Of a stretch of DNA of 7,118 nucleotides, positions 1 to 3,000 are shown in pieces. Made by a program: the position numbers. Numbering within the stretch: position 1 is the first letter of the stretch; each line of letters opens with the position of its first letter. The DNA comes from a virus (lineage: Duplodnaviria > Heunggongvirae > Uroviricota > Caudoviricetes), in IMG/VR virus record IMGVR_UViG_2548876695_000012, one strand, 5' to 3'.

Positions 1-3000
1 ACGTGTATTTTTAGTCATCCTGTTTACCTCTTTCTCAGGGAGTTTAGTCTCCAGGATTCCCGGGGCGGTTCAGATAATCTTAGCATTGACCGCCTTTATA
101 TAGAAGCTGTTATTCAAGAAGCATTTTCAAGCAGTGATGTAAGAAAATATTACACTATTAGAAAATCTGGCATGAAATCATCATTGAACCTAACAGAGAT
201 CGAGTATAAAGAAATATTGAAGTCACACCGCAATATAAATGGAATCGATAATTCTGGTTTTACAACTGAAACAAATGAAGCTGTTTTGGCTGCACTATCT
301 GCGGAGGTAAGGGGATGCTAACTCCATACAAAAGAGCTGATGTAGAATTCGAATGGATTAGTGATCTAGAAGAACAGGGTTGTTTTTCAAAAGTATATCT
401 GGCTCATGACAGACACCTAGCTCATGACTTGGTGATTAAAGAAATAGAAAAAAAAGAAAACACTAACCACGACGACTACTTTAATGAAGCAAGGCTTCTC
501 TATAAACATGCACATCCAAATATTGTGCAAGTTCAGTATGCTGCTCAATGTGAGAGCAATATCTATATAGCCATGCCATTTTATCATAATGGTTCGCTAA
601 ACCAATTAATGAAAAAAAATAATCTTACAAGCAGGGAGATAATACGGTATTCCATTCAATTTTTAAGTGGACTTTATCATATACACTCAAAAGGTCTTAT
701 GCATTTTGATATAAAACCTAATAACATTATGATATCAAACAGAAATGAGGCCATGCTATCTGACTTTGGATTATCTCAGTTAGTCAATGAGGAATCGAGA
801 GCTGCGCCTGAGTTTGGATATCATTTTCATGTGCCACCGGAATATTTTTCTTTATCAACAAATGATTATAATTTCACATATGACATATATCAGGCAGGAT
901 TAACCATATATAGAATGTGTGTTGGACATGATAATTTTGAAAGAGAAAGATCTGCATTTAGCACGATTGAACAACTCAGAGAGTCGATAATTAATGGCTG
1001 CTATCCATTAAAAGAGTATCCTCCCCATATACATAAAAAATTAATAACAATAGTGAACAAATGCATTCATGTAGATCCAAATGAAAGATATCAATCCGTA
1101 CTAGATGTACTAAACGATCTCTCAGCTATAAGTGATGGCGTTCTTGACTGGCGTCTACAGATGACGAAACCAACTAACGGCACATGCGAATGGCAAAAAA
1201 AGTCTGGGGACGCTATACTGTCTATAGTTTTTGACGCAGAAAATTCGTCTACTACTGGTTTTCGTTTATACGATGATGGGCGGAAAAGGCGTGCTACGAA
1301 CTTAACAATATCCTCAGGATGTACCCCTACAAAACTGTATAGGTTATTAAAGGATAACTGATCATGAAAAAGCGCGAGGAAGTAAGCAAGCTGCCTCGCA
1401 GACGTGATGCAGCATTAGCGGTTCCCTACAAAAAAGATGAGTTCATAAGTCCTTCTGATGACAAAAAATTTTCAAAGGCGAAAAGTTTTACATCTACATC
1501 TCTAAAAGATAAATACTTTAAAATCTAGCCCGGCCTCAGCGCCGGGTTTTCTTTGCCTCACGTTCGCCCACCTAAAAAACATAACCAATTGTATTTATTG
1601 ATGTAACTCGCTAAACCATGCAGTTATGATCCCTGCCGCATAACCTTCATCAGCCACATTTTCAAAAATAAATTTCCTTATATATCAGAATCATACTTCG
1701 TAGAGTTAATAAATCACCAAAATTCGTACCAATAGTTCTTGATAATGTCGAACTATTGGTTCATTATTATCGTCGTCAGCAGGACGCATTACTCACCAGG
1801 GCGGTGAATATACAACGATTCGAATATGAATCTACGGCGCTGACAAAGCGCAATAACCAAAGTGAACTTTGGGGTGTGGTGAAGGGTTCATGGACGGGAA
1901 TATGTCGCACGTAAAGCGGCGAGGCCTGCGGGACTATTGCCGAATTGAAGTAGGCCGAAACAGGTCGAAATGGGTCTCCCACCTACCACACCACCAAAGT
2001 TCATCAGGAGGTCTATATGACACGCAGAACTCAGTTCAAAGGCAATTCACGTTCTCGTCGTCGTGAGCGTTTAAAGGCAAAGGCATTAGCTAACGGCGTG
2101 CTGGCCCGCGAAGAAGCAATAAGTTCAGAAGTATTACACCGCCCTACTCTAAGTAGAGCGCAGATTCAGGCTAAAGGTACTCACGAAACGCCTGAGCGCA
2201 TAGAAGACGCTAAGCCAATTAAGTTCATGGCACAGGACGTGATCTGGCAACAGAAAGAATACAGACGCAATCTGGAGCGAGCGGCCATTGTGTACGCGAA
2301 TGAGTTTGGACATAAGCAACCAGAAACTGGTGTATGTCTTCCAAACGTAGCTCTTTACGCGGCAGGCTACCGGAAATCAAAACAACTGACAGCAAGATGA
2401 CTTGTGTTGGTCGCCAGAAAATGAAATTAGGCAGCAAACCACTTATTTGAGGTGAGATATGACAAAATCATGGAGCGTACCTTTTCCTGAATCAGAAACT
2501 GAACATGATGGAATGCCTGTTTTCTGGAGATTCCAGGCGACAGTTGAAGAAGATGGGATAAAAATATTCGCACTTCAATATATAGCTTTTCATCAGACAG
2601 AGCATTATGCATGGTTGGTTCCTGCGCATTGGATTGTTAATTTTAAACCAGCACCAAATCAGTGGTTACAGGAATGGAAACAAAAGAGAAATAGATATGC
2701 AATTAAGAAAGTAGCAAAAAATGCAGAAAGATCTTTTGCATTCCCAACGAAGAAACTTGCCATTGAAAGTTTATTGCGCCGGAAGAAATACCATTTAATG
2801 AGAATCAAACAAGATTTGGCTGTTGTATCAACTCTTGTTGATGGGATGAAGAATATTGATACATCAATACCAGATATTGAATATAACTTTGGACACAACC
2901 AAGAAACAGAAAATTGGGTATTTTATTAGTACGAATAAGCACTGTGTATTCATTCCAGCGAGTGAATACACGGAGCAATGTCGCTCGTAACTAAACAGGA

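Follow-up and report, generated by a model that had tools for sequence, protein, structure and literature searches.

What binds the inverted repeat that overlies the predicted leftward promoter, pL, of this prophage, and through what kind of site? The stretch of viral DNA that was analysed, 7,118 nucleotides long and called the window below, is the early-left region of a lambdoid prophage. At 1728-1760 it reads ACCAATAGTTC TTGATAATGTC GAACTATTGGT. A preliminary description regarded this as one dyad with half-sites a helical turn apart, and proposed either a repressor of unusual geometry or a different DNA-binding protein. Its account of the repeat itself was accurate: the arms at 1728-1738 (ACCAATAGTTC) and 1750-1760 (GAACTATTGGT) are 100% complementary across a spacer of 11 nt, the -35-like hexamer TTGATA lies inside that spacer, and the right arm lies inside the promoter spacer, between the -35 and -10 elements. 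It is the sole perfect inverted repeat of at least 10 nt with a spacer of at most 30 nt in the window. Among dinucleotide-preserving shuffles of the window, a perfect 11-nt repeat with a spacer of at most 30 nt was obtained in 93 of 2000 (4.7%); by statistics alone, an 11-nt dyad is just moderately unusual. From its sequence, the dyad is very probably the left operator region of a lambdoid prophage of 933W immunity, consisting of two 15-bp operators, OL2 and OL1, the exact coordinates of which were derived from published text and the sequence together.

Both sites are listed in Table 1 with the features that surround them. The half-sites proper are 5-bp blocks of the form c-G-(A/T)-A-C, set within 15-bp dyads (7 + 1 + 7). 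In OL2, the half-sites CGTACCA and AGAACTA are arranged around a central A, and in OL1, CGAACTA and TGAACCA are arranged around a central T. When the window was scanned, OL2 and OL1 each matched the core G(A/T)AC-N5-GT(A/T)C (GWAC-N5-GTWC) with zero mismatches, the number of perfect core matches expected per window being approximately 0.41. The earlier prediction that a repressor binds at pL is supported by these core matches over the promoter. The 11-nt arms, by contrast with that description, are not half-sites, each being a segment of an ordinary 15-bp dyad, and neither an unusual repressor geometry nor a different DNA-binding protein is needed. The reverse complement of OL1, TGAACCAATAGTTCG, shares 12 of its 15 bases with OL2, among them the whole of the weakly specified centre (CAATA in OL2, TATTG in OL1), and it is because of this match that a perfect 11-nt inverted repeat appears. 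Since a symmetric dimer does not sense the orientation of its operator, the inverted arrangement of OL1 and OL2 is probably neutral. The centre-to-centre distance between OL1 and OL2 is 24 bp, the same as for OR1-OR2 of 933W and OL1-OL2 of lambda. The names were assigned by the lambda convention, with OL1 proximal to the promoter and OL2 distal.

Table 1. Features of the window around the dyad (positions in the window; operator and promoter assignments are predictions).
Feature	Position	Strand	Remarks
stk kinase	315-1361		
Small ORF (933W L0081)	1364-1528		
tM, terminator of the cI-stk (pRM) transcript	1527-1548	+	Terminator scan and 933W GenBank annotation; ~180 bp upstream of the dyad
Intergenic region, 470 bp	between tM and N		Contains the dyad
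OL2 (promoter-distal)	1725-1739	.	15-bp 933W cI/Cro operator CGTACCAATAGTTCT; perfect core match
Perfect dyad, 11-N11-11	1728-1760	.	OL2 positions 4 to 2' (left arm), 9-bp inter-operator gap, OL1 positions 2 to 4' (right arm)
pL promoter	1739-1767	+	-35 TTGATA 1739-1744, 17-bp spacer, -10 CATTAT 1762-1767; consensus scan
OL1 (promoter-proximal)	1749-1763	.	15-bp 933W cI/Cro operator CGAACTATTGGTTCA; perfect core match
nutL (N-utilisation site), pL leader	1785-1851	+	933W annotation transferred at 100% identity
N, antiterminator	2017-2400	+	First gene repressed through OL1/OL2
cIII	3121-3261		
kil	3254-3418		
gam	3473-3769		
bet	3775-4560		
exo	4557-5237		

Between tM and N, just two core matches were found at no more than one mismatch, and no third OL site is therefore seen in that interval. 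The observation that only a single copy of the motif exists is correct for the 11-mer and incorrect for the operators, of which the dyad contains two copies. The left operator is likewise not a single-copy element: two OL sites are present here, as is reported for 933W, which lacks OL3 according to the available text of PMC3317979 and to PMC5977221. A direct repeat, D1 (1584-1604 against 1728-1748, 71% identity), was considered as a vestigial module of OL3 plus promoter and was rejected, since it has mismatches at both position 2s and since such identity over 21 nt is at chance level in an A+T-rich region of 550 bp.

The window does not contain cI and opens with 72 bases that belong to the end of an IS3-family element. 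A complete genome, NZ_CP027388, is identical to window positions 1-7047; in it the IS is flanked by the DUF3024 gene (933W L0084) and by stk, with cI and OR upstream of the IS. This cI is identical to 933W cI, and OR is identical as well. The 933W record annotates OR1, OR2, OR3, pR, pM, tM and nutL, while the OL sites are unannotated. The annotated right operators, OR1 CGTACTTTCAGTACG, OR2 TGAACTGAAAGTTTT and OR3 CGTACTCATGGTTCA, are dyads of 15 bp. The core is perfect in OR1 and OR3 and has one mismatch, at position 2', in OR2, and the same core matches are present at OR1-3 of NZ_CP027388. The preliminary description was to be given up if its half-site were absent from OR and the repressor bound elsewhere. 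The 11-mer arm indeed has no match in the 933W OR region, even with up to 2 mismatches allowed; the repressor is not thereby placed elsewhere, the core motif being found at OR1, OR2 and OR3.

The published rules for 933W operators can be compared with these sites directly. In the available text of Bullwinkle et al. 2012 (PMC3317979), sites for the 933W repressor are described as 15 bp long and rotationally symmetric about the central base pair, the natural sites being five in number (OR1-3 and OL1-2). Positions 2-5 are stated there to be conserved, more strongly than positions 6, 7 and the centre. A single OR2 half-site departs from G-C at position 2, no half-site departs from A and C at positions 4-5, and the consensus bases are C at position 1 and A at position 3, although T is preferred at position 3. 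The same text reports that OL2 and OL1 are bound more tightly than the consensus, with non-consensus bases at primed positions including 6'; dissociation constants for OL1 and OL2 are reported in its Fig. 1A and in its reference 12. Moreover, the repressor is described in PMC5977221 as binding OR1 and OR2 non-cooperatively. The ten half-sites formed by OR1-3 and the two OL sites satisfy each of the statements compared from the available text of PMC3317979. It can be observed that the OL sites carry the minority C at 6' and that OL2 has T at 3'. When the operator sequences themselves were looked for in full-text literature, the hits were confined to primers without any connection to them.

Regarding the promoter, TTGATA-17-CATTAT was the sole sigma-70-like match returned by a consensus scan of 1300-2500, and the transcript is predicted to start at approximately 1775. 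Both elements are displaced by no more than 1 nt from the positions of the lambda pL elements (TTGACA/GATACT) relative to the shared transcript start CAGCAGGACGCA. The last base of OL2 is the first T of the -35, and OL1 fills the spacer between -35 and -10 and reaches two bases into the -10, so that both predicted elements of pL are overlapped by operator sites. For the transfer of nutL from 933W, the locus coordinate equals the window coordinate + 3001.

Several further observations concern the genes downstream of pL. In the N leader, long-range complementarity exists between 1863-1880 and 1985-2003, where one perfect repeat of 10 nt and one of 13 nt at 85% are separated by approximately 105-120 nt; it ends just upstream of the N Shine-Dalgarno sequence. 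The complementarity is reminiscent of the stem in the lambda N leader that RNase III processes. The N gene of NZ_CP027388 is called by RefSeq/PGAP as a 69-bp partial pseudogene without an N-terminus (8332-8400 of locus L249, corresponding to window 2332-2400); the N ORF is nevertheless intact over all of its 127 codons, with 100% identity to 933W N. Furthermore, the Rfam family Lambda_thermo (cIII thermoregulator) was matched at 3108-3166 (88.5 bits, E = 3e-21), spanning the start of cIII.

The pattern of conservation was analysed among loci carrying the same cI N-terminal domain. For this sample, 80 contigs were collected by that domain (98-100% identical), and OL was located by blastn without the use of an operator motif; 73 loci were aligned, yielding 23 haplotypes over 1725-1768. 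An earlier pattern scan of viral contigs had required the operator cores, which made it circular for core conservation, and it was used just for variation at the centres; the cI-anchored sample and the N-anchored sample described below took its place. Across the 23 haplotypes, none of the 4 columns at operator position 1 is variable, and only 1 of the 16 at positions 2-5, against 8 of the 10 columns at positions 6, 7 and the centre and 9 of the 14 outside the operators. In OL2, positions 1-5 and 1'-5' are invariant but for one change at 2'. The bases at 1725-1727 and 1761-1763, which lie outside the arms of the dyad and inside the operators, are invariant, while the inner arm positions 1730-1734 and 1754-1758 are variable. 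As read from these alignments, the profile is the one predicted for two independently recognised symmetric sites, unlike that of a single 33-bp element.

A second line of evidence comes from the association of the OL cassette with the repressor. The N-anchored sample comprised 80 viral contigs with an N protein 99-100% identical to that of the window, in 71 loci of which enough upstream sequence was present. Upstream of N, the loci remain homologous as far as the pL transcript start, CATCAGCAGGACGCA, and further upstream at least five unrelated OL/pL cassettes are found. One of them is the lambda OL (TATCTCTGGCGGTG...TACCACTGGCGGTGATA), and another is of the 933W type. The mosaic boundary at the pL transcript start is sharp, at approximately 1770-1780 (loci L094-L173). 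The 933W cI N-terminal domain accompanied the 933W-type cassette in 23 of 23 loci and the other cassettes in 0 of 48. In 14 of those 48, the encoded cI is 92-95% identical to that of 933W over residues 82-235, and both the DNA-binding domain and OL are different. From these two counts and the 14 loci in which only residues 82-235 are shared, it can be concluded at the sequence level that the dyad-bearing cassette tracks the DNA-binding domain of the repressor specifically. The same loci indicate domain-level recombination within cI.

Three other explanations of the repeat were weighed against a pair of operators. One is a single 33-bp operator, the 11-bp arms of which would be half-sites for a repressor of unusual geometry or a different DNA-binding protein. 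The perfect complementarity of the 11-nt arms does exceed what the repressor needs for recognition, and at two pairs, double changes that keep complementarity are seen in some haplotypes, namely 1730/1758, C-G to T-A (5 haplotypes), and 1734/1754, A-T to G-C (3 haplotypes). These two compensatory-looking pairs could be a hint of pressure for symmetry between the operators. The haplotypes with the double changes all break pair 1731/1757, and most break 1732/1756 too. All 11 pairs are kept in only 8 of the 23 haplotypes, each of the two pairs just named being broken in 7, while the invariance reaches exactly the extent of the 15-bp operators rather than that of the arms. The distribution at OR, with the core present and the 11-mer absent, also counts against this explanation. 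Furthermore, in one lineage (4 haplotypes) among the cI-anchored loci (L174-L248) the OL1 centre has changed from TATTG to CAATA, its exact reverse complement, by three substitutions. A good operator is kept there in the opposite orientation, and the long dyad is abolished, which suggests either a preference for this centre irrespective of its orientation or gene conversion involving the two operators. A single long operator is thus considered very unlikely.

A nucleic-acid hairpin, acting either as an RNA stem-loop or terminator on pRM read-through or as a DNA cruciform, is judged more unlikely still. The RNA fold of 1715-1775 has an energy of -13.9 kcal/mol (z = -3.2 against shuffles), but this is a trivial consequence of the perfect repeat. 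The dyad has the strong terminator tM approximately 180 nt upstream and the predicted pL start downstream, and therefore appreciable transcription through it is not expected. The stem is A+T-rich, the terminator scan makes no call, and an Rfam search gave no match at the dyad; relatives, moreover, break the stem without consistent compensation. Least probable of the three is a chance inverted repeat without function. The frequency of such repeats among shuffled windows speaks in its favour, whereas the coincidence of the dyad with two perfect cognate operator cores, over the only promoter-like site of the region, and its strict co-inheritance with the cI DNA-binding domain speak against it.

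Within the reading as two 15-bp operators, a small chance is left to a more elaborate version, in which the near-perfect inversion of OL1 and OL2 (12 of 15) was selected, perhaps for equalised affinities with a non-cooperative repressor, or arose by gene conversion, and in which, separately, a core match inside stk is a cryptic distal third operator. This third perfect core match, CGTACTAGATGTACT, is found at 1097-1111, 630 bp upstream of OL2, at codons Val-Leu-Asp-Val-Leu. It is within the chance expectation given above, at least one match being present in 33% of shuffles. The site is unchanged throughout 24 stk-bearing loci, but in coding sequence such invariance carries no information.

The two operators can be placed in a regulatory scheme that rests on the established lambdoid paradigm and the cited 933W work, with binding and affinities taken from the literature. 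The identity with 933W, the decomposition into operators, the conservation pattern and the linkage to the cI N-terminal domain come from the present analysis. Each operator would be occupied by a single dimer of cI, a helix-turn-helix repressor, and presumably Cro binds there too; in each half-site, positions 2-5 with their G-(A/T)-A-C block would be what is recognised. With OL2 adjoining the -35 and OL1 in the spacer and at the edge of the -10, bound repressor would be expected to exclude RNA polymerase from the promoter. Such occlusion would silence N, cIII, kil, gam, bet and exo in the lysogen. Upon SOS induction, RecA-stimulated autocleavage of cI would subsequently leave pL free.

The ends of the window deserve a separate description. 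Positions 1-72 and 7047-7118 are inverted copies of each other, 97% identical, and correspond to that end of an IS3-family element (IS629/IS1203-like) in which the transposase ORF begins (MTKNTR...). In NZ_CP027388, an IS3 transposase adjoins window position 1 and the right-hand copy is absent. Therefore, either the source of the window carries a second insertion at 7047, or it is a contig that ends in repeats.

Among known systems, the closest is phage 933W. Window 1500-2050 is 100% identical to the OL1/OL2 and pL region of 933W (AF125520, NC_000924), without differences in the operator region, and also to dozens of Stx1 and Stx2 phages. At OL, 933W has two symmetric 15-bp sites, conserved at positions 2-5, and lacks a third, and the same holds here. 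The feature at 1728-1760 is OL1/OL2 of 933W, a pair that had been characterised before and the geometry of which is ordinary for a lambdoid phage. The OL sites of 933W were reportedly mapped by Tyler, Mills and Friedman in 2004, by Koudelka et al. in 2004 and by Bullwinkle and Koudelka in 2011. Outside the operator region differences do occur: identity to 933W is 99.4% over window 70-3061 and 96.7% over 3062-6150, a 401-bp deletion at 3061/3062 removes most of ssb/ea10, and the prophage of the window has the IS3-family insertion between the cI side and stk. Together with pL, the pair controls early leftward transcription of a Shiga-toxin prophage, and these elements have been the subject of biochemical work since 2004, so that the finding is of little consequence apart from correct annotation. 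As the GenBank records of 933W carry no OL annotation, the OL1/OL2 coordinates proposed here could fill that gap. A lesson of method is that adjacent quasi-palindromic operators in opposite orientation can mimic one long dyad with a spacer of a helical turn.

In comparison with lambda, the arrangement is similar in that the operators overlap the -35 and the spacer and -10 of pL, with OL1 and OL2 centres 24 bp apart, and in that nutL and N come after a pL transcript start and leader (CAGCAGGACGCA...) that are homologous in the two phages. The sites themselves differ. Lambda has three operators of 17 bp with half-sites of the TATCACCGC type, while here two of 15 bp are present; in the N-anchored sample, OL cassettes of the lambda type have 17-bp sites and a 7-bp gap. 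Finally, lambda repressor binds adjacent sites cooperatively, whereas the 933W repressor is reported, in the available text of PMC3317979, to bind adjacent sites without cooperativity.
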